Origin: an uncultured virus (IMG/VR IMGVR_UViG_3300036398_005783)
Lineage: Duplodnaviria; Heunggongvirae; Uroviricota; Caudoviricetes
Virus record (IMG/VR): IMGVR_UViG_3300036398_005783
DNA: 64,000 nucleotides
Strand: one strand, 5' to 3'
Positions within the stretch are counted from its first letter, which is position 1. Each line of letters begins with the position of its first letter. The notes under the pieces were generated by a model. It was not told the DNA's origin. It worked only from the letters and a program-made list of their open reading frames with translations, and made no database searches. A program made the translations under genes and the position numbers. Shown here in pieces: positions 30,610 to 57,384 of the stretch.

Positions 30610-31806
30610 ATGAAATACATTAAACTTTTTGAGAATTTTGATGCTGAAAGAGAGATGTCAGGTATACTTGGCTATGATGTTAAACTATTTCATCAAGTTA
30701 ATAAACTTATATTTTTAAGTCCTGAACAACTTCAAGAGTGGTTTGAAGAAGAAATAGAAAAGGATGAACCTAATTTGGATTTGATTAAAATTCTTGAAAC
30801 TCAGCACGGTATAGAATTTGATTTGGGATATAAGGACTTACATTGGGCGGCATGGGATAATAAAGTAGGATTAGTGAAATATTGGCTTAATAAGGGAGTA
30901 GATAAGGATGCTCAAGGTAATAATTTAAGAACTCCTTTGCATCAGGCGGCAATCAATGATAACGAAGCAGTTGCTAAACTCCTTATAGATGCTGGGGCAA
31001 ATAAGGATGCTCAAGATGGATTTTTACAAACTCCTTTACATTGGGCAGCACAGTATGATAAAAGAGCAGTTGCTAAACTCCTTATAGATGCTGGGGCAAG
31101 AACGGATATTAGGGATATGAGTGGGGAAACGGCTTTAGATTTAGCAAAGAAGAAAGGAGAGGTTATTTCTATGCTTTTTGAGGATAGGATTATTGATAGA
31201 ATGGGAGCTAAATACTCAACCTTTGAAATTGGTAAAATACAAAACAGACCATTTCTCAATAAAAATCAGATAGAGAGTTTATTGAAAACTACACTTAAAA
31301 CTAAATGTATTATTGGAATACGAGGATTTTATTTATCAAAGGGTAAAACGCCATTAAAGAATTTTTATTCTAAGAATGATAGGGGAATATACGATGATGC
31401 TATATTTATTTATGATGGTGTGAATATAGTAGGATTTAATGCAAATACTGATCCAGGTATGAGTGGTTTTAATCCTGATTTAAATACACAAAAGGGGTAT
31501 GCTACCTTATCAACTGGAACTTGGAAATACAAGATTGGATTACATAAAGGATATGAGGCATTAGTTCAGCAAGATGATGTTAAGGTCTATAGGGATTCTT
31601 ATGATGATGTTCCAAGTATGACTGAAACTGGAATGTTTGGTATAAATATTCACAGGGGTGGAGATACAACAGTATCATCAAAGGGTTGTCAGACTATACG
31701 ACCTGATCAATATGATGAATTTATGTCAAAGGTTAAATCTCTTTGGTCTGGTAATGAAATTGTTACTTATATGCTGATTGAAAATAAAGGTAATTCTTTA
31801 GCATAA
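30610..31806 (+). CDS. tagged ankyrin module fused to a putative L,D-transpeptidase-fold (His/Cys) cell-wall hydrolase
   Basis: MKYIKLFENF tag, TPLH repeats, C-terminal GIRG...TDPG...GINIHRG...SKGCQ. Confidence 0.7.
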   Translation: MKYIKLFENFDAEREMSGILGYDVKLFHQVNKLIFLSPEQLQEWFEEEIEKDEPNLDLIKILETQHGIEFDLGYKDLHWAAWDNKVGLVKYWLNKGVDKDAQGNNLRTPLHQAAINDNEAVAKLLIDAGANKDAQDGFLQTPLHWAAQYDKRAVAKLLIDAGARTDIRDMSGETALDLAKKKGEVISMLFEDRIIDRMGAKYSTFEIGKIQNRPFLNKNQIESLLKTTLKTKCIIGIRGFYLSKGKTPLKNFYSKNDRGIYDDAIFIYDGVNIVGFNANTDPGMSGFNPDLNTQKGYATLSTGTWKYKIGLHKGYEALVQQDDVKVYRDSYDDVPSMTETGMFGINIHRGGDTTVSSKGCQTIRPDQYDEFMSKVKSLWSGNEIVTYMLIENKGNSLA

Positions 31807-31820
31807 TGTAATAAAGGCAT

Positions 31821-32270
31821 TTAACTATTAGATCCATTTAGCATGGCAATTTCTTCTTGTAATTCATTAAGTTCAGATTCTAAATCTTCAATAATTTCTT
31901 GAGTAATTTCTTTATCATTAATTAAATCAAGCAATTCTGCATTAAGTTCAGCATATTTCTCATTATCTTTTATATCTATACTATAAGCATAATCACGAAG
32001 ACCATTTTTATATTCAGTAGGATTTTCCATTTCCATATATTCTGAATTACTATATGTTATATCATCAATGACAACATCTCCTTCTTCGTCCAAATGTTCT
32101 CGGTATTCTTCTTCATAATCATAGATATTGATTTCAAAATTTTCAATCTCATTTCTTTTTTCATCAATTTCATTTTGTGCCATATGAAGATGTGATGAGA
32201 GAAATGTTATATTATTTCTTATTTCATCAATGTCGTTTTGCAAATTTGAGATTTTCATTTCTTTATTCAT
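31821..32270 (-). CDS. very acidic coiled-coil protein
   Basis: Paralog of 4846-5289. Confidence 0.75.
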   Translation of the reverse strand: MNKEMKISNLQNDIDEIRNNITFLSSHLHMAQNEIDEKRNEIENFEINIYDYEEEYREHLDEEGDVVIDDITYSNSEYMEMENPTEYKNGLRDYAYSIDIKDNEKYAELNAELLDLINDKEITQEIIEDLESELNELQEEIAMLNGSNS

Positions 32271-32523
32271 TGTTTAACTCTTTATATTATTACCTGATTT
32301 TATATATTCTACATATGATTAAAATCTGAAGTTTTACACTTCTTTTATGTTTTTCACATCATATATTAAATATATCACTTACAAAGATAATAAAAATTGT
32401 GAAATATTCAAAATATATTCTTTTTTTATTTTATAGATTTATTTCATTCTCTCATTTGAGTTTTAATCTAAATAATAGATATATAGAAATTATCTACAAA
32501 ATAGAGCAAACTATCTGCATTTT

Positions 32524-35500
32524 ATGAAATATATTAAACTTTTTGAAAACTTTGATGCTGAACGGGAGATGTCAGGTATACTTGGTTATGATGTTAAACT
32601 ATTTAATCAAGTGAATAAACTTATATTTTTAAGTCCTGAACAACTTCAAGAATGGTTTGAAGATGAAATGGGTAAAGAAGAACCTAATTGGGATTTGATT
32701 GAAGTTCTTCAATCTCAGCATGGTATAGAGTTTGATTATAAGAATTTACATTGGGCAGCTGAACATAATAATATAGGATTAGCGAAATACTGGATTGATA
32801 AGGGAGCAGATAAAGATGCTCAATCTAAAATTTTATTATGGACTCCTTTGCATTATGCGGCAATTTATGATAGCAAAGCAGTTGCTAAACTTCTTATAGA
32901 TGCTAGAGCGGATAAGGATGCTCAAACTGAGAATTTAAACACTCCATTGCATTATGCGGCACTTAATGATAGCGAAGCAGTTGCTAAACTTCTTATAGAT
33001 GCTGGAGCGGATAAGGAAGCGATAAATAAGTATTTACGCACTCCTTTGCATTATGCGGCAATTAAAAATAGTGAAGCAGTTGCTAAACTTCTTATAGATG
33101 CTGGGGCGGATAAGGATGCAAGAGATAAGGTTTTACAAACTCCTTTGCATTTGGCGACAGAAGAAAATAGCGAAGCAGTTGCTAAACTCCTTTTAGATGC
33201 TGGAGCGGATAGAGGGGCTAAAAATACGCATAACCTAACTCCTTGGGGTTTAGCAAGTTCTGAAATTCGTCAATCTTTACCTGAATTGAATCCTGATGTT
33301 AAGCAATTTGAAAGTGAAACCTTTGATGCTGAACGGGAGATGTCAGGTATACTTGGTTATGATGTTAAACTTTTTCATCAAGTAAATAAACTTATATTTT
33401 TAAGCCCTAAAGAACTCCAGCAATGGTTTGAAGAAGAAATAGATAAAGAGCAGCCTAATTGGGATTTGATTAAAATTCTTGAATCTCAGCATGGTATAGA
33501 GTTTGATTATAAGGACTTACATTGGACAGCTCAAAATGATTCAGTAGGATTAGCAAAATACTGGATTGATAAGGGAGTGGATATGGATGCTAAAGATAAG
33601 TATTACTGGACACCATTATCTATAGCGGCAAGAGAAAATAGCGAAGAAGTTGCTAAACTCCTCATAGATGCTGGGGCAGATAAAGAAGCTAAAGATGAGG
33701 ATTTACGAACCCCTTTGCATTATGCGGCAAGTAAAAATAGCGAAGCAGTTGCTAAACTTCTTATAGATGCTGGGGCGGATAAGGAAGCTAAAAATAGGGA
33801 TTTACACACTCCTTTGCATTTTGCGGCGATTTATGATAGCGAAGCAGTTGCTAAACATCTTATAGATGCTGGAGTGGATAAAGAAGCGAGAAATAAGTAT
33901 TTAAGCACTCCTTTGCATTTGGCGGCAAATTATGATAGAATATCAGTTGCTAAACTCCTCTTGGATGCTGGATTGGATAGAGGGGCTAAAAATGAGCATA
34001 ACCTAACTCCTTGGGATTTAGCAAGTTCTGAAATTCGTCAATCTTTACCTGAGCTGAATCCTGATTTTAAGCAATTTGAAAGCGAAAACTTCAATGCTGA
34101 ACAGGAGATGTCAGATATACTTGGTTATGATGTTAAACTTTTTAATCAAGTTAGCAAGTTATTGTTTTTAAGCCCTGAAGAACTTCAAAAGTGGTTTGAA
34201 GAAGAAATGGGTAAGGAACAACCTAATTGGAATTTGATTGAAGTACTTGAATCTCAGCATGGTATAGAGTTTGATTATAAGGACTTACATTGGGCAGCTA
34301 AAAATGATTCAGTAGGATTAGCAAAATACTGGATTGATAAGGGAGTGGATATGGATGCTCAAGCTAAATCTTTATGGACTCCTTTGCATGTGGCGGTATA
34401 TTGGAATAGCGAAGCAGTTGCTAAACTTCTCTTAGATGCTGGGGCGGATATGGATGCAAGAGATAAGGATTTACGAACACCTTTGCATTGGGCGGCATGG
34501 AATGAAAGCGAAGCAATTACTAAACTTCTTATAGATGCTGGAGCGGATAAGGGGGCTAAAGATGATGATGGTGCTATACCATGGAATTTTGCAGGTTCTA
34601 GACTTCGCCAATCGTTACCTGAACTGAATCCTGATGCTAAACAATTTGAAAGTGAAAACTTCAATGCTGAACGAGAGATGTCTGATTTTCTTGGCTATGA
34701 TGTTAAACTCTTTAATCAAGTAAATAAACTTCTCTTTTTAAATCCTGAAGAACTTCAAGAGTGGTTTTACAATGAAATCGGTAAAGAAGAACCCCGTTGG
34801 GATTTGATTAAAATTCTTGAAACTCAGCATGGTATAAAGTTTGATTATAAGAATTTACATTGGGCAGCTGAACAGAATAAAGTAGGATTAGCGAAATATT
34901 TGCTTTATAAGGGAGCGGATAAAAATGCTCAAGAAATAAATTTAAATACTCCTTTACATGAAGCTGCAAAATATGATAGCGAAGCAGTCGCTAAACTTCT
35001 TATAGATGCTGGGGCGAATAAGGAAGCTAAAAATTCATTGTCACGAACTCCTTTGCATTGGGCGGCAATTAATGGTAGCGAAGCAGTTGCTAAACTTCTT
35101 ATAGATGCTGGAGCGGATAAGGGGGCTAAAGATGAACTTGGTGCTATACCATGGGATTATGCACGTTCTGGACTTCGCCAATCTTTACCTGAATTGAATC
35201 CTGATGCTAAACAATTTGAAAGTGAAAACTTTGATGCTGAACAGGAGATGTCAGGTATACTTGGCTATGATGTTAAACTCTTTCATAAAGTAAATAACTT
35301 ATTGTTTTTAAGTCCTGAAGAACTTCAGCAATGGTTTTACAATGAAATGGGTAAAGAAGAACCCCGTTGGGATTTAATCAAAGCACTTCAATCTCAACAT
35401 AGTATAAAGTTTGATTACAAGGACTTACATTGGGCGGCTGAGTATAGTAATATAGGATTAGCAAAATACTGGCTTGATAGAGGAATAGATAAGGATGCAA

Positions 35501-36555
35501 GAAATAGGTATTTGAGCACTCCTTTGCATTTTGCAGCAAGTAATAATAGCGAAGCAGTTGCTAAACTTCTGATTGATGCTGGGGCGGATAAGAATGCTAA
35601 AGATGATGATTTATATACCCCTTTACATTGGGCTGCATCATATGGTAATAATAGCGAAGCAGTTGCTAAACTTCTGATTGATGCTGGGGCGGATAAGAAT
35701 GCTCAAAATAAGTATTTACGCACTCCATTGCATTATGCGGCAAGGGATAATAGAGAATCAGTTGCTAAACTTCTGATTGATGCTGGGGCAGATAAAGAAA
35801 TTAAAGATGAGTTTAGACTAACTCCATGGGATTATGCTACTGATGAACTTCGCCAATCTTTACCTGAATTGAATCCTGATGCTAAACAATTTGAAAGTGA
35901 AAACTTTGATGCTGAACAGGAGATGTCGGGTATACTTGGCTATGATGTTAAACTATTTCATCAAGTAAATAAACTTCTCTTTTTAAGCCCTGAAGAACTT
36001 CAGAAATGGTTTTATAAGGAAATGGAAAAGGAAGAACCTCGTTGGGATTTGATTAAAATTCTTCAATCTCAATATGGTATAGAGTTTGATTATAAGGACT
36101 TACATTGGGCGATATGGAATAATAAGGTAGGATTGGCGAAATATTGGCTTGACAAGGGAGCAGACAAGGATGCAAGAAATAGGTATTTACGCACTCCTCT
36201 GCACATAGCATCAATTAGAAATAGAGAAGCAATCGCTAAACTTCTTATAGATGCTGGAGCAGATAAAGAGGCAAGAGAGGAGTGGTTACTCACTCCATTA
36301 CATTTGGCGGCAATAAATAATAGAAAAGCAATTGCTAAACTTCTCATAGATGCTGGGGCGGATAAGGAAGCAAGGGATAAATATTTATTAACTCCATTGC
36401 ATTATTCGGCAAGGAGTAATAGCAAAGCAGTTGCTAAAATTCTTATAGATGCTGGGGCGGATAAGGGGTCTAAAGATAATGAAGATCAAACTCCGTGGAA
36501 TTTAGCAAGTTCTGAACTTCGCCAATCTTTACCTGAATTAAAACCAAATAAATGA
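32524..36555 (+). CDS. six-module ankyrin repeat polyprotein
   Basis: Module = F(D/N)AE(R/Q)EMS..LGYDVKLF... head, ankyrin repeats, RQSLPELNP; five internal KQFESE junctions. Confidence 0.93.
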   Translation: MKYIKLFENFDAEREMSGILGYDVKLFNQVNKLIFLSPEQLQEWFEDEMGKEEPNWDLIEVLQSQHGIEFDYKNLHWAAEHNNIGLAKYWIDKGADKDAQSKILLWTPLHYAAIYDSKAVAKLLIDARADKDAQTENLNTPLHYAALNDSEAVAKLLIDAGADKEAINKYLRTPLHYAAIKNSEAVAKLLIDAGADKDARDKVLQTPLHLATEENSEAVAKLLLDAGADRGAKNTHNLTPWGLASSEIRQSLPELNPDVKQFESETFDAEREMSGILGYDVKLFHQVNKLIFLSPKELQQWFEEEIDKEQPNWDLIKILESQHGIEFDYKDLHWTAQNDSVGLAKYWIDKGVDMDAKDKYYWTPLSIAARENSEEVAKLLIDAGADKEAKDEDLRTPLHYAASKNSEAVAKLLIDAGADKEAKNRDLHTPLHFAAIYDSEAVAKHLIDAGVDKEARNKYLSTPLHLAANYDRISVAKLLLDAGLDRGAKNEHNLTPWDLASSEIRQSLPELNPDFKQFESENFNAEQEMSDILGYDVKLFNQVSKLLFLSPEELQKWFEEEMGKEQPNWNLIEVLESQHGIEFDYKDLHWAAKNDSVGLAKYWIDKGVDMDAQAKSLWTPLHVAVYWNSEAVAKLLLDAGADMDARDKDLRTPLHWAAWNESEAITKLLIDAGADKGAKDDDGAIPWNFAGSRLRQSLPELNPDAKQFESENFNAEREMSDFLGYDVKLFNQVNKLLFLNPEELQEWFYNEIGKEEPRWDLIKILETQHGIKFDYKNLHWAAEQNKVGLAKYLLYKGADKNAQEINLNTPLHEAAKYDSEAVAKLLIDAGANKEAKNSLSRTPLHWAAINGSEAVAKLLIDAGADKGAKDELGAIPWDYARSGLRQSLPELNPDAKQFESENFDAEQEMSGILGYDVKLFHKVNNLLFLSPEELQQWFYNEMGKEEPRWDLIKALQSQHSIKFDYKDLHWAAEYSNIGLAKYWLDRGIDKDARNRYLSTPLHFAASNNSEAVAKLLIDAGADKNAKDDDLYTPLHWAASYGNNSEAVAKLLIDAGADKNAQNKYLRTPLHYAARDNRESVAKLLIDAGADKEIKDEFRLTPWDYATDELRQSLPELNPDAKQFESENFDAEQEMSGILGYDVKLFHQVNKLLFLSPEELQKWFYKEMEKEEPRWDLIKILQSQYGIEFDYKDLHWAIWNNKVGLAKYWLDKGADKDARNRYLRTPLHIASIRNREAIAKLLIDAGADKEAREEWLLTPLHLAAINNRKAIAKLLIDAGADKEARDKYLLTPLHYSARSNSKAVAKILIDAGADKGSKDNEDQTPWNLASSELRQSLPELKPNK

Positions 36556-40151: not shown

Positions 40152-40649
40152 TTATTCTGTATAGATAGTATCATATATTACAATATCACTTGGATTAAAA
40201 ACAGCAATTTCATTCCCATCTAAAACAGAATCAAAACCTCCTGCCTTATAGACATTTTGTTGTGCTTTACCACTCATTCCAGTGAACGGCATAATCCCTT
40301 TATCCATAAAATCCCACGCTTTATCTAAAATCCAATTTCCATCTATTGGTAAATGTGGGTCTTCTTTATGTAATTCTTTTTTATACTCTTCAATCATTTC
40401 ATAAGAAGGTTTATCTTTTCCTAAAATATATGGATTCTTTATATTCAATTTTGCTATGGTAATTATATCACCATAACTTTTAGCTTTATCTAAAAGTTTT
40501 GTGAAATAAAAACCCTCAACATTACCTCTTCTATTTATAGTAGGTTTTAACTCAAATGATTCAATATGTGAATTACCTCCATGATACCATAAATCATTAT
40601 GTTCACTTTCACTTAAAAAGTCTTTAATGGTAGTTTTAAGTTTTTTCAT
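40152..40649 (-). CDS. ADP-ribosyltransferase-like (ART-PolyVal type) protein with MKKLKTTIKDFLSE tag
   Basis: WYHGG...GFYFT...A.SYG...LNIKNP...GFDSV...EIAVFNP. Confidence 0.7.
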   Translation of the reverse strand: MKKLKTTIKDFLSESEHNDLWYHGGNSHIESFELKPTINRRGNVEGFYFTKLLDKAKSYGDIITIAKLNIKNPYILGKDKPSYEMIEEYKKELHKEDPHLPIDGNWILDKAWDFMDKGIMPFTGMSGKAQQNVYKAGGFDSVLDGNEIAVFNPSDIVIYDTIYTE

Positions 40650-41456: not shown

Positions 41457-42302
41457 TTAGAAATTACAAACAAGTGCTTCTACAACACTTTTGCGGTTTT
41501 CAAGTTTCCCACCATTGTGGTAAAAATGGTCTTTTGTTATTATTCTAAATTTATTCCAATACTTATCAATCATATCATTTTTTCTCCATTCTGTATGATG
41601 CCAAGTAGAGAGGACAAATTTGGCTTTTGTTTGAGAAAGAAGGGTAAAAAGCAATTCTTCGTCTTCTTCTTTCCACCCATTATAATAATCAACATGTCTT
41701 CCGAAATAAGGAGGGTCGCAATAAATAATATCGCCTTCCTTTGCTTTGATTATAGTTTTAGAAAAATTTTCTGATGTAAACTCCCATAGGGGTGTTATGA
41801 CTTTTGAAACTTTTTCAATCTGATTTGAAATTTTGGTTATGTAAGACTTTGAAAATCTATTAGGTTTTTTGCAAAAAGGAACATTCCACTTACCCCCTCT
41901 ATTGAATCTCATTAGGCCGTTAAATCCTGAGCGAGAAAGAAACATAAAATCAAGTGGGGAAAAGTCTTCATTAAATCTTTTTCGGATTTCAAGATAAACC
42001 TCATAACCGTCATTATTTGAAAGAGATAATCGCTTTCCTTCAAATTGGAGATATTCTACGGCTTTTTCTTTCGTTATAGAACCACTTTGGATTTCTTTAT
42101 AGAATTGAATTATATGAGGATTGGCATCGTTTAATATGGCTTCTTTGTATCCTGAATTAAATGCTACTACTCCAGTTCCGAGAAAGGGTTCAATCCATCT
42201 ATCCGTTTGATTTAGGTTTTTTGTAATATCCAAAATCCAAGGAACTAATTTTGTTTTAATTCCTTGACTTTTAATTGGGGGTATTATGATTGATGGTGAC
42301 AT
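41457..42302 (-). CDS. Dam-family DNA adenine methyltransferase
   Basis: IKSQGIK, IEPFLGTG, FNGLMRFN..G..NVPF, YCDPPY. Confidence 0.92.
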   Translation of the reverse strand: MSPSIIIPPIKSQGIKTKLVPWILDITKNLNQTDRWIEPFLGTGVVAFNSGYKEAILNDANPHIIQFYKEIQSGSITKEKAVEYLQFEGKRLSLSNNDGYEVYLEIRKRFNEDFSPLDFMFLSRSGFNGLMRFNRGGKWNVPFCKKPNRFSKSYITKISNQIEKVSKVITPLWEFTSENFSKTIIKAKEGDIIYCDPPYFGRHVDYYNGWKEEDEELLFTLLSQTKAKFVLSTWHHTEWRKNDMIDKYWNKFRIITKDHFYHNGGKLENRKSVVEALVCNF

Positions 42303-46392: not shown

Positions 46393-47316
46393 TTACTCAA
46401 GTGTTGGTTTAAGTTGAGGTAGGTTTTTTTTCATAGATGCACTTGCTAAATTCCAAGGAAAATCCCCCCTTCTATCTTTAACATTTACATTCGCCATAGC
46501 ATCTAAAAGCATTTTAGTTATTATTTCATTATTTAATGATACTGCCCAATGCAAAGGGGTTCGCAATGTTTCATCTTGTCCTTCAGTATAAGCATTGTAC
46601 TCAATGAGAAGTTTAGTTATAATTTCAGAATTATTTTTTACTGCCAAATGCAAAGGAGTTTCATTTTCAGAATCAGACTGATTATAATCCACACCCTTTT
46701 TTAATAATAAAGATACAAGTTCATAACTATTAAGTATAATTGATTGTATGAGTGGAGTTATCCATTCTGAATCTTCGCTAAAGATTGTTATATTTAATTC
46801 TGCATGTCTTTTAATAAGATATTCGGCTATTTCCGTATTTCCATATAATAAAGCAAAACCTAAAGGTGTATTGTCGTAATAATCCGTACTTTCTATATCA
46901 GCACCATAATCTAAAAACAATTTAACAATTTCTATTTGGTTTTGAAATATTGCATAAAAAAGTGGATTAAGAAGGTCATCATTTGTAATATAAAAATCAA
47001 ATAAATCATATTCTAACAAATCTTTTAACAAATCTAAATTAGGTTGTTTTTCATTTATCTCTTCAAAAACAAGATACTTTAAATCTTCATCGGGCATATT
47101 GATATATTCTTTAACTCTTTCAAATTGTTCTTTATCAACCAATCCATATTCAAGTAAATCTTTAATAAGTTGTTGATCAGGATTCTCTAAAAACTCTACT
47201 TTGAAAGTTCTATTAACTTTCAACGGATCCATTAAAAAATATTTAGATACCCTATTGATACCATTAATATCGGAATTATCGCTTTCAAATAAATTAAATG
47301 ATTTAATGTATTTCAT
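46393..47316 (-). CDS. tagged ankyrin repeat protein
   Basis: MKYIKSFNLFES; TPLH repeats; LPQLKP end. Confidence 0.9.
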   Translation of the reverse strand: MKYIKSFNLFESDNSDINGINRVSKYFLMDPLKVNRTFKVEFLENPDQQLIKDLLEYGLVDKEQFERVKEYINMPDEDLKYLVFEEINEKQPNLDLLKDLLEYDLFDFYITNDDLLNPLFYAIFQNQIEIVKLFLDYGADIESTDYYDNTPLGFALLYGNTEIAEYLIKRHAELNITIFSEDSEWITPLIQSIILNSYELVSLLLKKGVDYNQSDSENETPLHLAVKNNSEIITKLLIEYNAYTEGQDETLRTPLHWAVSLNNEIITKMLLDAMANVNVKDRRGDFPWNLASASMKKNLPQLKPTLE

Positions 47317-47317
47317 A

Positions 47318-49165
47318 TTAGTTGTTTGGTTTTAATTCAGGTAAAGATTGGCGAAGTTCATTATGAGCATAATCCCATGGAGTAAAGTCATTATCATCTT
47401 TAGCCCCCTTATCCGCTCCAGCATCTATAAGTGCTTTAGCAAGTTCTGGGCGATTATCTATAGCCGCCCGATGCAATGGAGTCTGTTTAGCAGAGTTCTC
47501 CGCATTCAAATCCGCACCAGCATCTATAAGCATCTTAGCGATTTCTGGGTGATTACGTGTAGCCGCCCAATGCAATGGAGTTGATTCCCACCTATTCTCC
47601 GCATTTACATTCGCCCCAGCATCTATAAGCATCTTAGCAATTTCTGAGCGATTATCTATAGCCGCCCGATGCAATGGAGTCCATTTTTCATAGTCCTTCG
47701 CATCCATATCCGCCCCAGCATCTATAAGAAGTTTAGCAACTGCTTCGCTACCAAAACTTGCGGCAAAATGCAAAGGAGTGCGTAAATACTTATTTCTCGC
47801 TTCCTTGTCTGCTCCTTTGTCAAGCCAATATTTTGCTAATCCTATATTATTATACTCAGCCGCAAAATGTAAAGAGGTATAATCAAACTTTATACCATGC
47901 TGAGATTGAAGAATTTCAATCAAATCCCAATTAGGTTCATCCTTTTCTATTTCCCTATAAAACCACTCTTGAAGTTCTTCAGGACTTAAAAATATAAGTT
48001 TATTTACTTGATGAAAAAGTTTAACATCATAGCCAAGTATATCTGACATCTCCCGTTCAGCATTGAAGTTTTCACTTTCAAATTGTTTAGCATCAGGATT
48101 CAGCTCAGGTAAAGATTGACGGAGTTCATCATTAGCATAATCACATGGAGTTTGATTATGTATGTCTTTAACCCCCTTATCTGCCCCAGCATCTATAAGA
48201 AGTTTAGCGACTGCTTCGCTATTATAACTTGCCGCATAATGCAATGGAGTACATAATTCATTATCTTGAGCTTCCTTATCTGCTCCAGCATCTATAAGAA
48301 GTTTAGCGACTGCTTCGCTATTATAACTTGCCGCATAATGCAATGGAGTACGTAAATCCTTATCTCTTGCATCCTTATCCGCCCCAGCATCTATAAGAAG
48401 TTTAGCAACTGCTTCGCTTTCATTCATTGCCGCCCAATGCAAAGGGGTTCGTAAATCCCTATTTTTAGCCCCCTTATCCGCTCCAGCATCTATAAGAAGT
48501 TTAGCGACTGCTTCGCTATTATTACTTGCCGCCAAATGTAAAGGGGTTTGTAAATCCCTATCTTTTGCTTCCTTATCCGCTCTAGCATCTATAAGAAGTT
48601 TAGCAACTGCTTCGCTATCATTAATTGCCGCAAAATGCAAAGGAGTTCGTAAATACTCATTTTGAGCATCTTTATCCGCCCCATTATCTATAAGAAGTTT
48701 AGCAACTGCTTCGCTACCATTAATTGCCGCAAAATGCAAAGGAGTCCATAAACCTTTAGATTGAGCATCCTTATCCGCCCCAGCATCTATAAGAAGTTTA
48801 GCAACTGCTTCGCTATCATGTTCTGCCGCAAAATGTAAAGGAGTTTGTAAATTGTCATCTTCAGCATTCTTATCCGCCCCAGCATCAATCAGAAATTTAG
48901 CAACTGCTCCACTATTATGTTCTGCCGCCCAATGTAAATTCCAACCTCCAAAATCAAACTTTATACCATGCTGAGATTGAAGAATTTCAATCAAATCCAA
49001 ACGGGGTTCTTCCTTTTCCATTTCTTTGTAAAACCATTGCTGAAGTTTTTCAGGTTTTAAAAACAATAACTTATTCACTTGATGAAATAGTTTAACATCA
49101 TAGCCAAGTATATCTGACATCTCCCGTTCAGCATCAAAATTCTCAAAAAGTTTAATGTATTTCAT
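47318..49165 (-). CDS. two-module tagged ankyrin polyprotein
   Basis: Same module as 32524-36555; one internal KQFESENF. Confidence 0.93.
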   Translation of the reverse strand: MKYIKLFENFDAEREMSDILGYDVKLFHQVNKLLFLKPEKLQQWFYKEMEKEEPRLDLIEILQSQHGIKFDFGGWNLHWAAEHNSGAVAKFLIDAGADKNAEDDNLQTPLHFAAEHDSEAVAKLLIDAGADKDAQSKGLWTPLHFAAINGSEAVAKLLIDNGADKDAQNEYLRTPLHFAAINDSEAVAKLLIDARADKEAKDRDLQTPLHLAASNNSEAVAKLLIDAGADKGAKNRDLRTPLHWAAMNESEAVAKLLIDAGADKDARDKDLRTPLHYAASYNSEAVAKLLIDAGADKEAQDNELCTPLHYAASYNSEAVAKLLIDAGADKGVKDIHNQTPCDYANDELRQSLPELNPDAKQFESENFNAEREMSDILGYDVKLFHQVNKLIFLSPEELQEWFYREIEKDEPNWDLIEILQSQHGIKFDYTSLHFAAEYNNIGLAKYWLDKGADKEARNKYLRTPLHFAASFGSEAVAKLLIDAGADMDAKDYEKWTPLHRAAIDNRSEIAKMLIDAGANVNAENRWESTPLHWAATRNHPEIAKMLIDAGADLNAENSAKQTPLHRAAIDNRPELAKALIDAGADKGAKDDNDFTPWDYAHNELRQSLPELKPNN

Positions 49166-49205
49166 CTAATTTAATTTACATTTGTATCTATATATCCTGA
49201 ATATT

Positions 49206-50036
49206 TTATAGAGATGGAATATAACTAAAAATATGAGCTATAACATCCACAGTCCAACTATTTCCCATACATTTTTTTGCTTGATTTTCACTTATAGGAT
49301 TTGTATAACCGATAGGTATTGTTTGCAACAATTCAGCTTCAGTACGAGTTAAATTTCTGTATCCATCTTTTGTTTTAATCCACATATTCCCATTATATGA
49401 ATTTGTTCTAAGGGTTGTTGATTTATCCTTAATTTCTTTTCTATTGTAAGGATCACAATACTTTGGTAAATGTGTGGGTACTCTTAACTCCCAATTTTTA
49501 GGAATTTTGTATTCTTTAATTGAATGGTCTATAATGTGGTCTAATACAATCTCTTTATCTTTTATTTTAGTATCAAATGGTATATTAGTCCAATAAAGTC
49601 TTTTTCTTCGCTGTGCAGAAAATAAAGAACTGCACAATTCAATGGGTTCAATACCCATATAATTTGTGATAACTTCTTTCCATTCTTTCTTCATTTTGAC
49701 ATTTTCAAGAAGAAAATACTTTGGGTTAATTTCTTCTAAAAGTCTGATAAATTCAAAAAATAAAGAACTTCTTGGATCTTGAAAATTCAAACCTTTACCT
49801 ATAAATGAAAATCCTTGACATGGGCTTCCGCCTATTACTACATCAATTTTCGGTAAGTCAGAACCCTTAATCTTTGTTATATCACCTAATTGAATTGTAT
49901 TAGGAAAATTATTTTGGGTAACTTTTATGGCATGTTTATCTATCTCTGAAGCAAAATATGTATCGTATTTAATTTTAGCACGATTAAGTGCTATTTGACC
50001 ACAACTGATACCATCAAAAAGACTTAATACATTCAT
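49206..50036 (-). CDS. C5 cytosine DNA methyltransferase
   Basis: SLFDG, GGSPCQ, LENV, QRRKR, GNSW. Confidence 0.92.
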   Translation of the reverse strand: MNVLSLFDGISCGQIALNRAKIKYDTYFASEIDKHAIKVTQNNFPNTIQLGDITKIKGSDLPKIDVVIGGSPCQGFSFIGKGLNFQDPRSSLFFEFIRLLEEINPKYFLLENVKMKKEWKEVITNYMGIEPIELCSSLFSAQRRKRLYWTNIPFDTKIKDKEIVLDHIIDHSIKEYKIPKNWELRVPTHLPKYCDPYNRKEIKDKSTTLRTNSYNGNMWIKTKDGYRNLTRTEAELLQTIPIGYTNPISENQAKKCMGNSWTVDVIAHIFSYIPSL

Positions 50037-50076
50037 TTATGTTGTAAAGTTAATATAGGTAATTGGATATAATTCT

Positions 50077-50475
50077 TTATTTATCTTTAGCCCGATATTT
50101 TCTCATAGCCAATGTATGTAAAATTTTACATCCTTCACATCTACACCCATTTCTATATGCACTTCTACTTGGGTGTTTCTTTAGATGTTCATTTTTAGGG
50201 GGTGTTATAGTTCCTCTTTTAACACCATTTTGATAATTTTCTTTTGCTGTGACAAGAATCAAATGTTTCGGATTTACACAGAGTTTATTATTGCATTTAT
50301 GAGAAACAAAATAATTTTCTGGTATTTCTCCTTTAAGTTTCATATATGCAAATTTATGAACACTTATTACTTTACCTTCAACTTTTACAGCACCATAACC
50401 ATTTTTACCACGAGTACCGCCAATCCAATTCCAGCACTTTCTTGTTTTTTTTACTTTTGAAAAGAATCGTTCCAT
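50077..50475 (-). CDS. HNH homing endonuclease-like protein
   Basis: CWNW...GYG...H...SHKCNNKLCVNPKHL...EN. Confidence 0.8.
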   Translation of the reverse strand: MERFFSKVKKTRKCWNWIGGTRGKNGYGAVKVEGKVISVHKFAYMKLKGEIPENYFVSHKCNNKLCVNPKHLILVTAKENYQNGVKRGTITPPKNEHLKKHPSRSAYRNGCRCEGCKILHTLAMRKYRAKDK

Positions 50476-50536
50476 TGTTTTGCTATAAAATTTTAGTCAA
50501 AATTTGTTATTTGATTGTATATCAAATACCAACATT

Positions 50537-50998
50537 TCAAGGTTTTAGAATTTGAATAATCGTTTGAAGACCTTCTTCTAATGTAGAAACAACGATATTT
50601 CCGAATGTGAGCATAGCGTGATGATGTGAATTATTTTCTTCCATAACAATAACCACAGGAATTTGAAATGCTCGTGCCCAAGCAATTTCCATAACTGTCC
50701 CTATGCTAATTTTATCTCCTGAACCTGAAAAATTAACAAGGATTGCATCGGAAGTTTTAGTGTCATTGTAATCTCTTACATTGATTCCAATAATTGAGGA
50801 CATTGTATGTTCTGCATAGGAATCCGCTATATTAGATTCTTCAGAAAGATAATGTTTTTCTCTCATAGGAGAGTATCCAAGAATATCATTGTCTTTCAGA
50901 TATTCTTTTGAATATTCTCTCCAATCAGTAACATCATTGTATTTATGACCTGATATAGGTCCAGCCAAATAAACTTTATGATATTTCACAATTATCAC
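50537..50998 (-). CDS. nucleoside 2-deoxyribosyltransferase family protein
   Basis: VYLAGPI...D....D...SIGTVMEIAWA. Confidence 0.85.
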   Translation of the reverse strand: MIIVKYHKVYLAGPISGHKYNDVTDWREYSKEYLKDNDILGYSPMREKHYLSEESNIADSYAEHTMSSIIGINVRDYNDTKTSDAILVNFSGSGDKISIGTVMEIAWARAFQIPVVIVMEENNSHHHAMLTFGNIVVSTLEEGLQTIIQILKP

Positions 50999-51695
50999 CT
51001 ACTTTAGTTTTATAGTGTTTAATATAATCTGGATTGTAAAAAGTCCTAACCTTTTCTTTATCACCAGAAACATGTTTAATCATAATTCCAAGATGGGGAA
51101 TAGATGTTCCTTCAATATAATTGTTGTAAAGAAATTCACGATGGATTTCTTCACTCCATTCTCCTGTATGGAGAATTTCTATATGGGGAATATTCAGAAT
51201 TTGGTCAAAAATTAATTTAGAAGCATCTGGACTTTCAAAGTTTTTTTCTTTGAAAACATCAGTTCCATAAAAGCCAATTTCATTTTCACCATATGTGTAA
51301 ACATCACATATATCTTTGCCATATACAACGCCATAGATTGTAAATTCTTCTTTAATGAAATTTTTACCTAAACTTCTTACGGCATTCCATAAAGTGTTCT
51401 TTATATTTAATTTATTATCAACCTTTTTTAATTTAGAGTCAGCCGATATGTGATACATATCAGTTGGGGATTCTGCATTTTCAATAGATTGGTAATAAGC
51501 AGAATAATACTCATAGTCAATCCATTCATCTGCTAATTTAAATGTCTTTTTAATTTTATCCAATAATGATAATCTTTTCTTTTTACGGATAGAGAATAGA
51601 CAATCTCTTCCACAAATTTTTCTTGTTATTTGTACTTCATCATCGGGAGTAGGGTTATACATATAATCACCTTTTGAATTAATATTTTTTTCCAT
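50976..51695 (-). CDS. degenerate RNA ligase-like protein
   Basis: IYGVVYG..I...YTYG, IPHLGIMIK and NPDY resemble ligase motifs, but the catalytic residues appear replaced. Confidence 0.45.
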   Translation of the reverse strand: MEKNINSKGDYMYNPTPDDEVQITRKICGRDCLFSIRKKKRLSLLDKIKKTFKLADEWIDYEYYSAYYQSIENAESPTDMYHISADSKLKKVDNKLNIKNTLWNAVRSLGKNFIKEEFTIYGVVYGKDICDVYTYGENEIGFYGTDVFKEKNFESPDASKLIFDQILNIPHIEILHTGEWSEEIHREFLYNNYIEGTSIPHLGIMIKHVSGDKEKVRTFYNPDYIKHYKTKVGDNCEIS

Positions 51696-52068
51696 GTAAA
51701 TAAGGTCTTGTTTTATTGTAATTTACTTTTGCATTTATTTGTTTTTCTACATCTATGTTTAGTCTCGCTGATAAATCTAAAAGTCTTAAAATAGCATCTG
51801 CTATTTCATCTTCAAATGTATCTTTTATATGTAATTCAAATGCTTTAGTTTCTCCTAATTCGGAAATGTCTTTGTCAAAGGATTGCCAATTTGAGAATCT
51901 TTCTTTTCTATGAGATTCAAGAGCTTCACCGAGTTCGCTAGTGATAAGCATAAGAAGTTCACCTATATTGTAATTAGGATTATCAAACCCTTTTTCTTTA
52001 TTATTGTTTAATACAATTTTAGATGATTCGTTTAATCCAATACAAATAGTATTTTTATTATCTTTCAT
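51679..52068 (-). CDS. MazG-like NTP pyrophosphohydrolase
   Basis: LITSELGEALE...EDEIADAILRLLD...K..YN..RPY.HGK. Confidence 0.85.
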   Translation of the reverse strand: MKDNKNTICIGLNESSKIVLNNNKEKGFDNPNYNIGELLMLITSELGEALESHRKERFSNWQSFDKDISELGETKAFELHIKDTFEDEIADAILRLLDLSARLNIDVEKQINAKVNYNKTRPYLHGKKY

Positions 52069-52105
52069 TTTGCATCATTTTTAAATTAAAGTCAATTTGA
52101 CTAGT

Positions 52106-52930
52106 TCAATCATTAGTGTAGTTAAATATAACTATTTCTTGACTTTCTTTTGAATTTTTCTTTCGGGCTACCTTTTCATAGTCTAAATCAATAATCTTGT
52201 AGTTAAATCCATAATCAATTAAGTTATAGATTAATTCAGATTCTTTATTATCTTTATGTTTTCCTTTTACCCCACTCAACATAAATGAATGTCCAGAATC
52301 GTGGAGTTTAAGGATATAATCATATAATTTTTTTTCAAAACTCAAAGACCAATATGAGTTATATCCAGCTTCGGTATTGATATATGGCGGATCAAGATAA
52401 ACCATAGTTGGTTTTGTTGGAAAAATCTCATAGAAATTTTTACTTTCAAATTTTATTTTGTCTTTATATTCTTGAATATAATTGACAAATGTATTTACTT
52501 TATTTTCTGTTGAATCGTTCCAAGTTCTTTTTCCAAAGGTTTGATTAAATTCAAATTTTTTATTGAATCTCATCATATTATTTGTGCATGAAAGCATAAG
52601 TGCCCAAAGTTTTTCAGGGCTTTTATTTTGATTGTAGTCTTTTCTCAATTCTAAATAGTAATCTAAATCATCCTTTGATTTAACTATGACTTCTTTTACT
52701 TTTTCTATAAATTCATCAGGATTCTGTATTAGATTTTTGTGAATTAAAACTAAATCAGAAATGACATCATTAATCATTACCTTTTTATATTTTGATGCCA
52801 CATTAGTATAGACAGAACCGCCACCGCAAAATAAATCTATAAAATAATCTTTATTGTAATCAAACAATGGTAGAATTTGAGAGAGTATTTTATACTTATT
52901 TCCAGTATAATTAAAAGGAGTATTAATCAT
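52106..52930 (-). CDS. Dam-family DNA adenine methyltransferase
   Basis: NYTGNK, DLFCGGGSV, RFN..FN..FG, YLDPPY. Confidence 0.92.
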   Translation of the reverse strand: MINTPFNYTGNKYKILSQILPLFDYNKDYFIDLFCGGGSVYTNVASKYKKVMINDVISDLVLIHKNLIQNPDEFIEKVKEVIVKSKDDLDYYLELRKDYNQNKSPEKLWALMLSCTNNMMRFNKKFEFNQTFGKRTWNDSTENKVNTFVNYIQEYKDKIKFESKNFYEIFPTKPTMVYLDPPYINTEAGYNSYWSLSFEKKLYDYILKLHDSGHSFMLSGVKGKHKDNKESELIYNLIDYGFNYKIIDLDYEKVARKKNSKESQEIVIFNYTND

Positions 52931-53722
52931 TTATATTAATCTATAAGGTTGATTCATAATTCTATTAACTGCAATATCATAGTATTTCTTTTCCTTTTCA
53001 ATTCCTATGAATTTACGATTCAATTCTTTAGCACCTAATGGAGTTGTTCCGCTACCCATAGTATTATCTAATACAAACTTATGTTCTTCTGAATATGACT
53101 GAATCAACCACTTTATTAATTCCAATGGTTTTTGTGTTGGGTGTATTTGGTCTTGTCTTCGCCATTGTTGAGGGAAATCTAATATAGTGCTTGGATGTCT
53201 TGTTCCTTCATTTTTTACTTCAACACCACCAATCCCATATTTCATATTATTTGTTTTCATAGGAGTCCAATTTCTTTTATATGGAGTCCCTTTCTCAAAT
53301 TGAGGACTATAGTATGATGCACTTTCACCAAATACCAATATCATTTCATGTTTTTTCATAGGCATATATTTTGCAGTAAGAGGGCTACCGCACTTACTTT
53401 TTTTCCAAACCATATCATATCTAAATAATTTTGGATTACTCAAAGCAAGATTAAAAGCAAATAGACCTGCACCGAACAAAATTATATTTCCCTTTGGGGC
53501 TATTATTCTTTCGTATTCTTTCCATAATTGCGTCATATTTATGACACTATCCCACTTATTAGCAGTCGTTCCATATGGTAAATCTGCTAATATAAGTTGA
53601 ACAGATTTATCAGGAATAAGTGGCATTATTTCTAAACAATCTCCAAGAAATAAAGCATTCTCTCCATTATCTGTATTATATGATAATTCTCTTTCTGAAT
53701 TTTTTATAATTACATCAAGCAT
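52931..53722 (-). CDS. beta-class N6A/N4C DNA methyltransferase
   Basis: GDCLE, ADLPYG, HPTQKP, LDNTMGSGTT. Confidence 0.92.
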   Translation of the reverse strand: MLDVIIKNSERELSYNTDNGENALFLGDCLEIMPLIPDKSVQLILADLPYGTTANKWDSVINMTQLWKEYERIIAPKGNIILFGAGLFAFNLALSNPKLFRYDMVWKKSKCGSPLTAKYMPMKKHEMILVFGESASYYSPQFEKGTPYKRNWTPMKTNNMKYGIGGVEVKNEGTRHPSTILDFPQQWRRQDQIHPTQKPLELIKWLIQSYSEEHKFVLDNTMGSGTTPLGAKELNRKFIGIEKEKKYYDIAVNRIMNQPYRLI

Positions 53723-53755
53723 AATAACAAGATAATAGGGATTAGAATTCTTATA

Positions 53756-54379
53756 TTATAAGATTGAATTAAGAATTTCTTGACACAATTGTTCGGGGAT
53801 TTTACTTCTTTCGTATGAACCTTTTCTACCTTGAGTTCCTGTTCTTGAACCTCTTGGAGCTGGTTGGTGATGGCATTCTTTATTACCATTATGGCAAACA
53901 GGTCTTGGCTTCCACTTTTCAGAATTTGTCCAAATATCTGTAGGTTTAGCTCTATCATCACCATAAGTGCAATACCATATTGTATGCCTTTTATATTTCA
54001 ACATCCACGGCATTTTACGAAGCATTCCACGAGGATTCTCTACGAAAAAAACCATATTAGGATTTAATTTTAACCATTGTTCAATTAGAGATAGGAAGTG
54101 CTGATTTACAATATCACATTTTTTTGCATAATCACTTTTCGGTTCAGTTCCAGTTCTATGTTTGCTAATTGCAGCAATAGTATATGTTGTACAATCTGGA
54201 GAAGCCCAAATTAAATCAGGTATAAATGGAACATCTGAAAGTTTCATATCTTGTACATCACCAACCCAATTGATTTTTTCAAAAGGTTGCCAATCTACAC
54301 TAAATACTTCCATTCCAAGAGATTCTGCTTTATTACCTATTGATCTACTACCAGCAAACAATTCTAAAACTTTTTTCAT
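53756..54379 (-). CDS. short C5 cytosine methyltransferase-like protein
   Basis: MKKVLELFAG, WASPDC, VENP; start moved downstream of the tRNA. Confidence 0.8.
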   Translation of the reverse strand: MKKVLELFAGSRSIGNKAESLGMEVFSVDWQPFEKINWVGDVQDMKLSDVPFIPDLIWASPDCTTYTIAAISKHRTGTEPKSDYAKKCDIVNQHFLSLIEQWLKLNPNMVFFVENPRGMLRKMPWMLKYKRHTIWYCTYGDDRAKPTDIWTNSEKWKPRPVCHNGNKECHHQPAPRGSRTGTQGRKGSYERSKIPEQLCQEILNSIL

Positions 54380-54400
54380 ACAAATACTAACTAAAGTGGG

Positions 54401-54484
54401 TGGGAGCGGCGGGACTTGAACCCGCACACCCTTACGGATCCAGCATTTTAAGTGCTGTGCGTCTGCCGATTTCGCCACGCTCCC
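54401..54484 (-). tRNA. tRNA-Leu(TAA)
   Basis: GGGAGCG/CGCTCCC-A, D arm GGCGAAATCGGCAGACGC, CAGCA-CTTAAAA-TGCTG, long variable arm, GCGGG-TTCAAGT-CCCGC. Confidence 0.93.
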
Positions 54485-54542
54485 AATACATAGATTCTAA
54501 CCAAAAGTTATCTTATCTATGCAAAGATAAACTATATTTATA

Positions 54543-56138: not shown

Positions 56139-56183
56139 AATTGAGGGTATTAAATTTATAATATTACAAACAAAAAACTAAAG

Positions 56184-56257
56184 TGGGCCCAGGAGGACTT
56201 GAACCTCCAACCTGCGGATTATGAGTCCGATGCTCTAACCTATTGAGCTATAGGCCC
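56184..56257 (-). tRNA. tRNA with CAT anticodon (Ile2-like; Met not excluded)
   Basis: GGGCCTA/TGGGCCC-A, GCTCAATAGGTTAGAGC, CTCATAA loop, GGAGG-TTCAAGT-CCTCC. Confidence 0.9.
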
Positions 56258-56493
56258 GAGTTCAATAAAAGGACAATCAAAATTATTATATGCAATATAG
56301 CATAAATAACTCACTTTAGCAAATATATTTTGAAATAAAATTCTAATTATACAAATAGAGTTTCTTCTGGTTGGGATGATTTTTTTGATTCAGACTTTTT
56401 TTTGGCAATAATCAAAGTTGCAACAATTACTGCTGTGACTGAAGCGATTTTAAGAATGGTCTTTAAGGAATTTTTCATATATCTATAATAATG

Positions 56494-57384
56494 TTAATCT
56501 ATCTTTGTTAATTTTTTAATAAAATCATTTTTAGTTAAATCATACGGAGTTTTATCGTCTCCATCTTTTATGTCTAATTTAGCCCCAGCATCTACAAGGA
56601 GTTTTGCAATCTCTTCTCTATTTTTTATTGCTGCCCAATGTAATGGAGTACGTAAATACTCATCTTGAGCATCCTTATCTGCTCCAGCATCCAAGAGAAG
56701 TTTTAATATCATCTTACTATCAAATACTACCGCCACATGCAAAGGAGTTAATAAATCATCATCTTTAGCATCCTTATCCGCCCCAGCATCTAAAAGGAGT
56801 TTAGCGACTGCTTCGTTATCCCATTGTGCAACTTTATGTAAAGGGGTGCGTAATCCATCATCTTTAGCATTTTCATCCGCTCCAGCGTCTAAAAGGAGTT
56901 TAGCAACTGCTTCGCTATCATTTCTTGTTGCTAAATGTAAAGGAGTCCTTAACCACTGATCTTCAGCATTTTCATCTGCTCCTTTATCCAAAAGGAGTTT
57001 TGTAATTTCTTCATTGTTATTAAGTGATGCCCAATGTAAAGGGGTTTGTAAATTATCATCTCTAAAATCCTTACCATCCATAGCTTCTAAAAAAAACTTA
57101 ACTCTATCAACATTATTTTGTGAAATGCCTATGAATAATAAGTGTATTTGATTTGATATATCAAATTTTAAGCCAATAGTAGAAAGTGCATATAGTAATT
57201 CATAATTCGGTTCTTCTTTATATAATTCATTTACAAACCAAAAATCTATTTCTTCATCGCTCATTGAATTAAACTTATTAATTTCTGGAATAAGTTTAGG
57301 ATTAAAGCCAAGAAAATCAGATATATCTTTTTGAATATCTAAATTTTCACTTTCAAACAAATTAAATGGTTTTATATATTTCAT
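56494..57384 (-). CDS. tagged ankyrin repeat protein
   Basis: MKYIKPFNLFES; five TPLH repeats with the same framework as the polyproteins. Confidence 0.92.
   Translation of the reverse strand: MKYIKPFNLFESENLDIQKDISDFLGFNPKLIPEINKFNSMSDEEIDFWFVNELYKEEPNYELLYALSTIGLKFDISNQIHLLFIGISQNNVDRVKFFLEAMDGKDFRDDNLQTPLHWASLNNNEEITKLLLDKGADENAEDQWLRTPLHLATRNDSEAVAKLLLDAGADENAKDDGLRTPLHKVAQWDNEAVAKLLLDAGADKDAKDDDLLTPLHVAVVFDSKMILKLLLDAGADKDAQDEYLRTPLHWAAIKNREEIAKLLVDAGAKLDIKDGDDKTPYDLTKNDFIKKLTKID

Follow-up and report, generated by a model that had tools for sequence, protein, structure and literature searches.

We have analyzed a stretch of 64,000 nucleotides (hereafter the window) from an uncultured virus, IMG/VR record IMGVR_UViG_3300036398_005783, in which 14 open reading frames (ORFs) of the ankyrin type occupy 23.1% of the bases, among nine DNA methylase genes. 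Four of these ORFs, here called genes A to D, carry tandem repeats of 33 amino acids (aa) in which a nearly fixed scaffold is combined with a few highly variable columns. The repeats are packed in larger, self-capped modules, and both repeats and modules are gained and lost between strains. We consider it probable, though some way from assured, that these genes are a paralogous family of cytoplasmic ankyrin binders, reshuffled by unequal recombination and gene fusion, in a large tailed phage. The building block would be a self-contained module made of a four-helix N-domain, an N-cap, 2–7 units, a C-cap and a flexible LPEL[NK]P tail. Modules would stand single or be fused in frame, two or six per ORF, like beads on a string, and would change through ordinary mutation together with unequal homologous recombination, both at the level of the 99-bp unit and at that of the whole module. 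The outcomes would be gain and loss of units, gain and loss of modules, and fusion and fission of genes, with no dedicated mutator involved.

A fixed scaffold with variable columns

We have scanned the 66 ORFs of at least 100 aa found in the window with the Pfam models at their gathering scores (27.3 bits for Ank_2). The four ORFs in which the initial annotation had noticed 33-aa repeats are all open and all match Pfam ankyrin: gene A (30610-31806, plus strand, 398 aa), gene B (32524-36555, plus strand, 1343 aa in a single frame), gene C (47318-49165, minus strand, 615 aa) and gene D (56494-57384, minus strand, 296 aa). Their Ank_2 E-values were 4.6e-33, 7.4e-146, 5.8e-114 and 1.5e-53, respectively, with scores of 114–476 bits, and Tandem Repeats Finder detected period-99 arrays in all four. 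Ten further ORFs of the window match ankyrin models (nine of them above the Ank_2 cut-off) and are described below.

A sliding scan of genes A–D gave 38 segments of 33 aa, 36 internal units and two that resemble N-caps. Over the 36 units the amino-acid entropy was 2.0–3.2 bits at unit columns 5, 6, 7, 8, 10, 15, 18 and 19, and 0–0.5 bits at TPLH, K26, L28, D30, A31, G32 and A33. The eight high-entropy columns coincide with the loop before TPLH, helix 1 and the end of helix 1, in agreement with the earlier proposal of a fixed framework with a variable binding face. Variation was concentrated in these eight columns, and the even spread along the repeat that had been named as contrary to the proposal was not seen. 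The residue that follows TPLH was Y in eight units, W in seven, F in six, L in five, I, V and R in two each and Q, E and K in one each. This is the set listed at the outset, with the addition of one A that belongs to a mis-registered unit.

At the DNA level, a 32-nt word from helix 2 was present in 29 copies with at most three mismatches, all inside genes A–D, and in none of 100 shuffles. The adjacent near-identical repeats described before were also found: the units at 48182-48280 and 48281-48379 share 91 of 99 nt, including an exact run of 67 nt. On the other hand, helix 2 is the only part of which it is true that the DNA is almost unchanged. For the scaffold overall the statement fails, as the synonymous difference was 0.35 per site, which is not small. 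Synonymous codon diversity in the scaffold was 43% of saturation under the phage's own codon usage (5.27 vs 12.16, 22 columns), and position-specific rare codons were retained across units. When the ankyrin units of genes A–D were pooled with those of related metagenome loci (L001–L011), the ratio of synonymous diversity to saturation was 0.33 in helix 2 (bootstrap 0.28–0.37), 0.54 in TPLH/AA (0.47–0.60) and 0.78 in the GADKDA loop (0.70–0.84). Simple common descent predicts a uniform synonymous diversity, and the gradient observed is uneven. It may be explained by conversion or crossover concentrated in helix 2, or by selection on that DNA or RNA. Taken together, the recurrence of the helix-2 word, the rare codons and the gradient point to shared descent or homogenisation of the units.

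Self-capped modules and in-frame fusion

Beyond the repeats first described, there is a higher-order architecture of modules that is new here. Genes A, B and C contain nine modules (one, six and two, respectively), with the same parts in the same order: a conserved 61-aa N-domain, an N-cap, 2–7 internal units, a C-cap and the tail LRQSLPEL[NK]P. The single module of gene A (N-domain, N-cap and two internal units) is followed by an unrelated C-terminal domain of about 210 aa. Along gene B, on the plus strand, modules B1 (32551-33321) and B2 (33322-34089) have four internal units each, B3 (34090-34659) and B4 (34660-35229) have two, and B5 (35230-35904) and B6 (35905-36552) have three. Gene C, on the minus strand, starts with module C1 (48068-49138), an N-cap and then seven internal units, and ends with C2 (47321-48067), with four units. 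Gene D is a diverged single module with five internal units.

The internal linkers of gene B read LPELNPD[AVF]KQFESE[NT]F. At the boundary between gene C and the next ankyrin gene, gene L, the sequence is LPELKPNN-stop-MKYIKSFNLFESDN, and gene D starts with MKYIKPFNLFESEN, the unfused form of the linker motif. The linkers thus retain an old gene end (LPEL[NK]P) and an old gene head (FESEN), as expected if tandem single-module genes had been fused in frame. An 81-nt exact repeat is common to the B4/B5 and B5/B6 junctions, and exact repeats of 58–81 nt are found within and between the ankyrin genes. The C-terminal motif P-E/Q-L-K/N/Q-P is kept in genes B and C, in genes L, M and N (see below) and in the related proteins P0009, P0010 and P0014, even where the N-domain of the relatives is only 43–54% identical, and it recurs in every internal linker. 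Judging from this sequence pattern, it could be a processing or recognition site.

An AlphaFold2 model of module B3 (predicted local distance difference test, pLDDT, of 90.7) was all helical and formed one continuous solenoid, with a low-confidence linker. In the model the N-domain adds four helices that continue the solenoid, columns 15 and 18 are located in helix 1, column 19 at the end of helix 1 and columns 5–8 and 10 in the preceding loop, while the invariant columns 22–30 make up helix 2. The closest solved folds were consensus ankyrins and designed ankyrin repeat proteins (DARPins), with a root mean square deviation of 1.4–1.7 over about 120 residues, and the closest solved sequences were ankyrin-1, ankyrin-2 and DARPin constructs. 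Since TPLH and helix 2 are constant from unit to unit and the differences fall in helix 1 and the loop that precedes TPLH, each module presents a different concave face.

Gain and loss of units and modules between strains

Units and modules are gained and lost between strains, with the caveat that all the copy-number differences come from short-read metagenome assemblies. We have found 12 related metagenome loci, three of which (L001, L002 and L005) show synteny to the window, with 93–99% identity. The repeat shuffling suggested in the initial annotation could be recognized directly in the comparison of L001 and L002, where a clean 99-bp indel of one unit is flanked by 638 nt with 100% identity on one side and 1362 nt with 99.7% identity on the other. 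Larger differences affect whole modules. Gene B has six in the window and four in L002, where the gene ends with LPELKPNK and a stop after the counterpart of B4. This 4-module end was present in two contigs and one protein cluster, and elsewhere B5+B6 is a separate ORF of 450 aa, with its own MKYIK start and five member sequences. Gene C codes for 615 aa in the window vs 194 aa in L005, over flanks that are 93–99% identical. Among the family proteins (P0001–P0022 minus the unrelated match P0011, n = 21) the number of modules per ORF goes from one to six.

The differences in units or modules from the sister contigs were always in frame and at unit or module boundaries. In-frame joints were also detected in the contigs of four lake runs, for example a net change of -99 bp in three runs from three studies. 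A net change of -675 bp, equal to the length of module B5, was seen in a single run, and one of +669 bp in two. These joints may derive from paralogues or from other organisms. Word depth over the arrays was 25–245 vs about 10–15 in the flanks; as it mixes paralogues and relatives, it is not a copy number.

Selection on the variable columns

For all 34 in-register units, nonsynonymous difference (pN) at the variable columns was 0.50 vs a synonymous difference (pS) of 0.35 in the scaffold. As for the N-domains of the nine modules, pS was 0.32 and pN 0.11 (omega ~0.27). We have also used 87 distinct units (window and loci), with one half of the scaffold codons serving to pick the nearest neighbours and the other half to measure them. 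The values were 0.19–0.35 for scaffold pS, 0.40–0.45 for variable pN and about 0.39 for pS of the variable codons themselves. The uncorrected nearest-neighbour figures (scaffold pS 0.209, variable pN 0.44) were discarded in favour of this split-site version because they were biased, the pairs being chosen on the same sites. When changes were counted by parsimony on a tree built from these 87 units with IQ-TREE, omega was 0.32 for the scaffold and, for the variable columns, 1.17 against their own synonymous rate (dS) and 1.47 against the dS of the scaffold. Columns 7, 8, 10, 15, 18 and 19 changed at 1.4–1.7 times the global synonymous rate.

The residues at the variable columns are not a neutral mix. 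R (3.3 times), W (3.2 times) and Q (2.6 times) are enriched, together with D, N and Y, and G, A and T are depleted 4–5 times, S being poor too. In the comparison between strains the sole excess was that of B2 vs the first module of L002 (variable pN 0.303, scaffold pS 0.164), which may be a cassette replacement. The diversifying selection that had been proposed is weakly supported: an omega of 1.17–1.47 at the eight columns speaks for it, and the conservation of the variable residues of B3 and B4 between strains (see below) speaks against it. With their variable residues kept, these two faces are at present conserved, not racing. In our reading the faces are functional, a face that has once been made is mostly conserved, and new ones arise episodically and are kept as paralogues.

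Predicted function

None of the products of genes A–D showed an export signal in a crude hydropathy test (maximum 12-aa hydropathy in the first 40 residues, 0.63–0.90) or a membrane helix (no 19-aa stretch above 1.4). Because they have neither signal peptide nor membrane helix, we infer that the proteins would act in the cytoplasm of the infected cell, as a panel of host-protein binders. The position of the genes among anti-restriction genes suggests a role in host takeover or counter-defence.

A more ambitious version, which we regard as rather improbable, is that the phage population holds a combinatorial repertoire of binders, in which modules would be exchangeable cassettes, helix 2 a recombination handle, and the modules of a multi-module string would each neutralise a different host defence or toxin protein. 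The helix-2 word would serve as the handle, its synonymous diversity being 0.33 of saturation vs 0.78 for the loop, and ORFs like gene B would be polyproteins or multivalent strings. Were this true, the turnover of units and modules between strains would be the phage's way of tracking a variable host immunity.

Counter-evidence and rival explanations

Several of our results weigh against a family of binders diversified by recombination and selection. The excess of omega is modest, and vanishes against the synonymous rate of the variable codons themselves (1.17). In the orthologous module B3, none of ~41 nonsynonymous variable-column sites differs, with 13.5 synonymous differences across the module, and in the orthologous B4 variable pN (0.109) is lower than pS between strains. 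A PHI-like test for recombination was not significant, with p = 0.13 for the N-domains of the window, 0.075 when all 24 distinct N-domains were taken and 1.0 for the set of 87 units. The contigs of four lake runs gave 28 listed single-letter variants over genes A and B, three of which fell in internal units and one in a variable column; the single-letter variants in lake contigs were mostly ordinary transitions. Logan contigs break into pieces of 150–300 bp inside the arrays and none spans them, so that repeat collapse or chimeric joins are possible for individual variants. As to function, it is the neighbourhood alone that suggests an anti-defence role, and binding by the modules is a prediction. 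Finally, no capsid or terminase gene was found in the DNA read (window and sister contigs), although its context is phage-like.

Among the other explanations, the one to which we give most room, while still thinking it unlikely, is relaxed constraint alone: the variable columns would be the unconstrained surface of an old, much-duplicated family, and the identity of the scaffold would come from recent duplication or conversion. This is what an omega of 1.17 against their own synonymous rate would lead one to expect, as would the cross-validated pN of 0.40–0.45 vs an own-codon pS of ~0.39, and the same positions vary in every ankyrin family, a fact on which DARPins are designed. However, the residues are far from neutral in composition (R, W and Q up 2.6–3.3 times, G, A and T down 4–5 times), B3 and B4 conserve their residues in spite of changes at synonymous sites, as under purifying selection that acts on specific faces, and six columns exceed the global dS 1.4–1.7 times despite parsimony on a tree from the same data, expected to bias against such an excess. 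Rather improbable, in our opinion, is that contigs differ in their numbers of units and modules only because a repeat-rich region was misassembled, the arrays themselves being real. In favour of this are exact repeats of 58–81 nt within and between genes, the fragmentation of the Logan contigs with none spanning the arrays, and evidence that comes wholly from short-read assemblies. Yet every difference is in frame and at a unit or module boundary, the identical net 99-bp joint appears in three runs from three studies, the 4-module form has a proper end (LPELKPNK and stop) in two contigs and one protein cluster, and B5+B6, where separate, form an ORF with a start codon of its own and five member sequences.

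Still less probable to us is that the proteins are effectors against eukaryotes, e.g., protist grazers, by which the phage would protect its host from predation, as proposed for the secreted ANKp of the Ankyphages of sponges. Grazing is common in lake water, from which the element comes; host-associated bacteria typically have ankyrins, according to Dyrka et al. (2014, PMC4986451); and the phage protein ANKp lowers phagocytosis and the cytokine response in macrophage assays, as stated in the Ankyphage study (10.1101/608950). In that same study two of the Ankyphage ANKs have N-terminal signal peptides, whereas genes A–D have neither signal nor membrane helix, lie within a block of DNA methylases and other early-type genes, and find their relatives in free-water metagenome contigs, with a single 2.6-kb contig among 185,579 species genomes. 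Lastly, we give almost no credit to a diversity-generating retroelement (DGR), or another targeted mutator, as the writer of the variable codons. The initial annotation had left a DGR open; a fixed frame with variable codons is superficially like the variable region of one, and a reverse transcriptase could sit in the rest of the genome, outside the DNA read. Against it, no RVT family was found in the 66 ORFs of the window or in 27 ORFs of the sister contigs, and there was no non-coding template repeat, since all 29 copies of the 32-mer are coding and lie in genes A–D. The variable nucleotide positions had as consensus base T in 10 cases, G in nine, A in eight and C in two, with 15.2 substitutions per consensus site for A, 18.6 for G, 15.9 for T and 8.1 for C; being spread over T, G and A, they show no adenine bias. 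Besides, variation extends across dozens of units in several genes instead of one C-terminal variable region, and the variable residues of B3 are identical between strains. The sequence gives no sign of a dedicated mutator, and on these grounds the DGR is rejected.

Other ankyrin genes of the window

The ten further ankyrin ORFs are the following. Gene L (46393-47316, minus strand, 307 aa) is a diverged gene of the MKYIK type that begins one base past the stop of gene C; gene M (57418-58002, minus strand, 194 aa), also of MKYIK type, adjoins gene D; and gene N (62535-63026, plus strand, 163 aa) is of MRYIK type (motif at 62547), with the C-terminal end ...SLPELKPKNK. Gene J (11500-13152, minus strand, 550 aa) has an MKYIK start and its ankyrin repeats are located in the C-terminal half, on which its PHROG matches fall. 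Its N-terminal ~270 aa (12301-13152) match no Pfam family and start with MKYIKLFEEF, as in the ankyrin family. The remaining ones, all on the minus strand, are diverged ORFs at 1-483 (extending past the edge of the window), 10782-11393 and 14121-14912, and small diverged ORFs at 2080-2463, 2571-2972 and 7941-8399, that at 2571-2972 being a weak match, which narrowly passes the cut-offs of Ank_4 and Ank_3 and falls short of that of Ank_2. Eight of the ankyrin ORFs start with MKYIK or MRYIK, and the corresponding DNA motif is found eight times in the window vs 0.04 expected, always at the start of an ankyrin gene.

Genes A, B, C, M and N are preceded, 14–46 nt before their starts, by the sequence GATATATA (30573, 32478, 49189, 58044 and 62521), which is also present at other sites. 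Over the whole window it appears 12 times vs 6.4 expected, a number reached in three of 100 shuffles; being barely enriched, it is only a weak lead to a promoter. Genes A and B (30610-36555) are on the plus strand, with positive GC skew, in a region otherwise transcribed from the minus strand, where their paralogues C, D, L and M are found. Their orientation may be the result of an inversion between inverted ankyrin paralogues.

The C-terminal domain of gene A (31150-31806) matched phrog_3000 (1.3e-25), of unknown function, and weakly an endolysin PHROG, and the protein cluster 100% identical to gene A is named 'lysozyme' by one source. The Atlas neighbours of this domain, mostly from Uroviricota, were Uroviricota hypothetical proteins, with a 0.78 lead to Tlde1_dom. 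By eye, it has an H...SxGC motif like those of L,D-transpeptidase folds. No relative was found by sequence in the PDB (best E = 0.26), and the single-sequence AlphaFold model (pLDDT 33) was unusable.

Carrier and genomic context

The window has a G+C content of 27–37% and small genes, nearly all on the same strand. Eight DNA methylases were recognized by Pfam (four D12-class, one MT-A70, two N6_N4 and one C5) at 41457-54478 and 15636-16358, and the ninth (53756-54478) by a PHROG match. There are also an S-adenosylmethionine (SAM) synthetase (61193-62419), an ArdA-like ORF (1543-2037) with a weak match of 26.7 bits, just below the cut-off of 27, an ORF with a weak match to ART-PolyVal (40152-40649), genes for YopX, HNH, an RNA-ligase-like protein and a pyrophosphatase (PHROG), and two tRNAs, one of them tRNA-Leu(taa) at 54397-54485. 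This methylase-rich set looks like an anti-restriction or host-takeover island.

The carrier is probably a large tailed phage of lake bacteria, with a host in the Flavobacteriia, to judge from its genes and their relatives. Seven records of Flavobacterium psychrophilum phages contain proteins with 61% identity to the RNA-ligase-like protein, and a methylase of the window has 78% DNA identity to Polaribacter phage P12002L. Megablast of 20 kb of the window against phages gave as sole match a 164-nt methylase stretch. The sister contigs code for Amidase_2, a peptidoglycan-binding protein, OmpA, a DNA ligase, UvdE and additional ankyrins. The sequence of the window was present in 20 runs from 20 studies, 19 labelled lake-water metagenome and one labelled metagenome only, and one matching contig reached 184 kb. 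In the search of the 185,579 species genomes, the 2.6-kb contig mentioned above was binned in a metagenome-assembled genome of the Pirellulales. An origin in a giant virus was considered and set aside, given the homologues in Flavobacterium and Polaribacter phages, the Uroviricota Atlas neighbours and the peptidoglycan enzymes of the relatives.

Two observations concern neighbouring regions. At the tRNA-Leu(taa) site (window 54380-54399) the sister contig L005 has ~860 extra bases (L005 3899-4758), which carry an ORF of 228 aa (L005 3963-4649) missing from the window. The ORFs at 20173-20898 and 23000-23845, of unknown function, both match phrog_4785 and are probably a small paralogous pair.

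Rarity of the N-domain

We have searched for relatives of the N-domain in large protein collections. There were matches at E ≤ 0.001 to 10 of 1.84 billion representative proteins, and in another collection, of 5.77 billion sequences, 11 clusters matched; the cluster names given in the sources were only 'ankyrin repeat protein' or, for the cluster of gene A, 'lysozyme'. The N-domain matched no PHROG family, and the ankyrin PHROGs are of unknown function. In a viral contig collection a query with gene C found no relatives, and in a search with the module alignment none of 267 pattern matches was confirmed. Using tblastn with gene C, 28 of 50,697 phage records were matched, 15 of them Wolbachia phage WO, and none was above 40% identity. 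By these sequence searches, ankyrin genes are rare in sequenced phages. One mycobacteriophage ankyrin match is annotated as a polymorphic-toxin immunity protein, which would make the neutralisation of toxins a known use of the ankyrin fold. Among the titles and abstracts listed in literature searches, no ankyrin gene family was found for jumbo, freshwater or Flavobacterium phages, only the work on Ankyphages and phage WO.

Comparison with known systems

In evolutionary mode, the closest analogues are the highly internally conserved (HiC) repeats of the fungal NOD-like receptors (NLRs), with the ankyrin expansions of phages and giant viruses also close. According to Dyrka et al. (2014, PMC4986451), the HiC repeats of the ANK, TPR and WD families in fungal NLRs have near-identical DNA, numbers that vary between isolates, recombination-driven concerted evolution and selected positions on the concave face, and our genes are like them in the first three of these features. 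Repeat-number polymorphism is found here too, in the 99-bp indel and the module differences of genes B and C (short-read assemblies). The definition of HiC repeats in that study is an identity of at least 85% over at least 100 aa, and the best values here, below that threshold, were 81% for gene C, 69% for B, 64% for D and 36% for A. On the concave face we have the omega of 1.17–1.47 and the six columns at 1.4–1.7 times the global dS, but B3 and B4 are conserved. Unlike fungal STAND receptors, the phage proteins have no NACHT or NB-ARC, only Pfam ankyrin plus sub-cut-off matches at chance level, and unlike HiC repeats their units form self-capped modules, with duplication and fusion affecting the modules as well.

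As in the Ankyphages and phage WO, ankyrin-repeat proteins are here accessory genes of a phage, in our case a probable tailed phage. The Ankyphage protein ANKp, as described by Jahn et al. (10.1101/608950), is phage-encoded, secreted with a signal peptide and acts on eukaryotic cells; genes A–D differ in that the crude hydropathy test detected no signal peptide. Identity to the ankyrin proteins of phage WO did not exceed 34% (tblastn). Ankyphages and phage WO have one or a few ankyrin genes, not 14 in 64 kb, nor a six-module fusion or this N-domain.

DARPins and consensus ankyrins (PDB 1n0r, 4gpm and others) were the best fold match among solved chains, with 37–41% identity and a root mean square deviation of about 1.5–1.7, and like the modules they have N- and C-caps around 2–7 internal repeats. 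The differences are that ours are natural proteins with an extra four-helix N-domain. In the DARPin library made by Binz and colleagues in 2003 the randomised positions were reportedly 2, 3, 5, 13, 14 and 33. If these are the right positions, as we presume, all six are among the eight most variable columns here; positions 1 and 10 would go beyond that design, as they vary too, position 10 with Y, W, F or L in most cases. The resemblance is real as regards the fold, but much of it comes with being an ankyrin, since natural variability was the starting point for building DARPins. Giant viruses such as Bodo saltans virus have tandem ankyrin gene expansions, a 'genomic accordion' thought to reflect an arms race with the host, and have in common with the window many paralogous ankyrin genes in a viral genome. 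Unlike them, the carrier described here appears to have a bacterial host, given its phage-like genes, the peptidoglycan enzymes of its relatives and the Flavobacterium-phage homologues.

What appears distinctive here is the rare N-domain, the self-capped module as the unit of duplication, the fusion in frame of as many as six modules, and the fact that ankyrin genes are so dense in a phage whose hosts are free-living bacteria. A phage detected in 20 runs of 20 studies devotes 23% of a 64-kb accessory region to these genes. If the modules bind host targets of defence or takeover, they would be a natural counterpart, in the conflict between phage and bacterium, of the engineered ankyrin binders, and could supply binders that are compact and stable and have known scaffolds. 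Otherwise, the family would still be a clean example of the concerted evolution of a viral repeat family.

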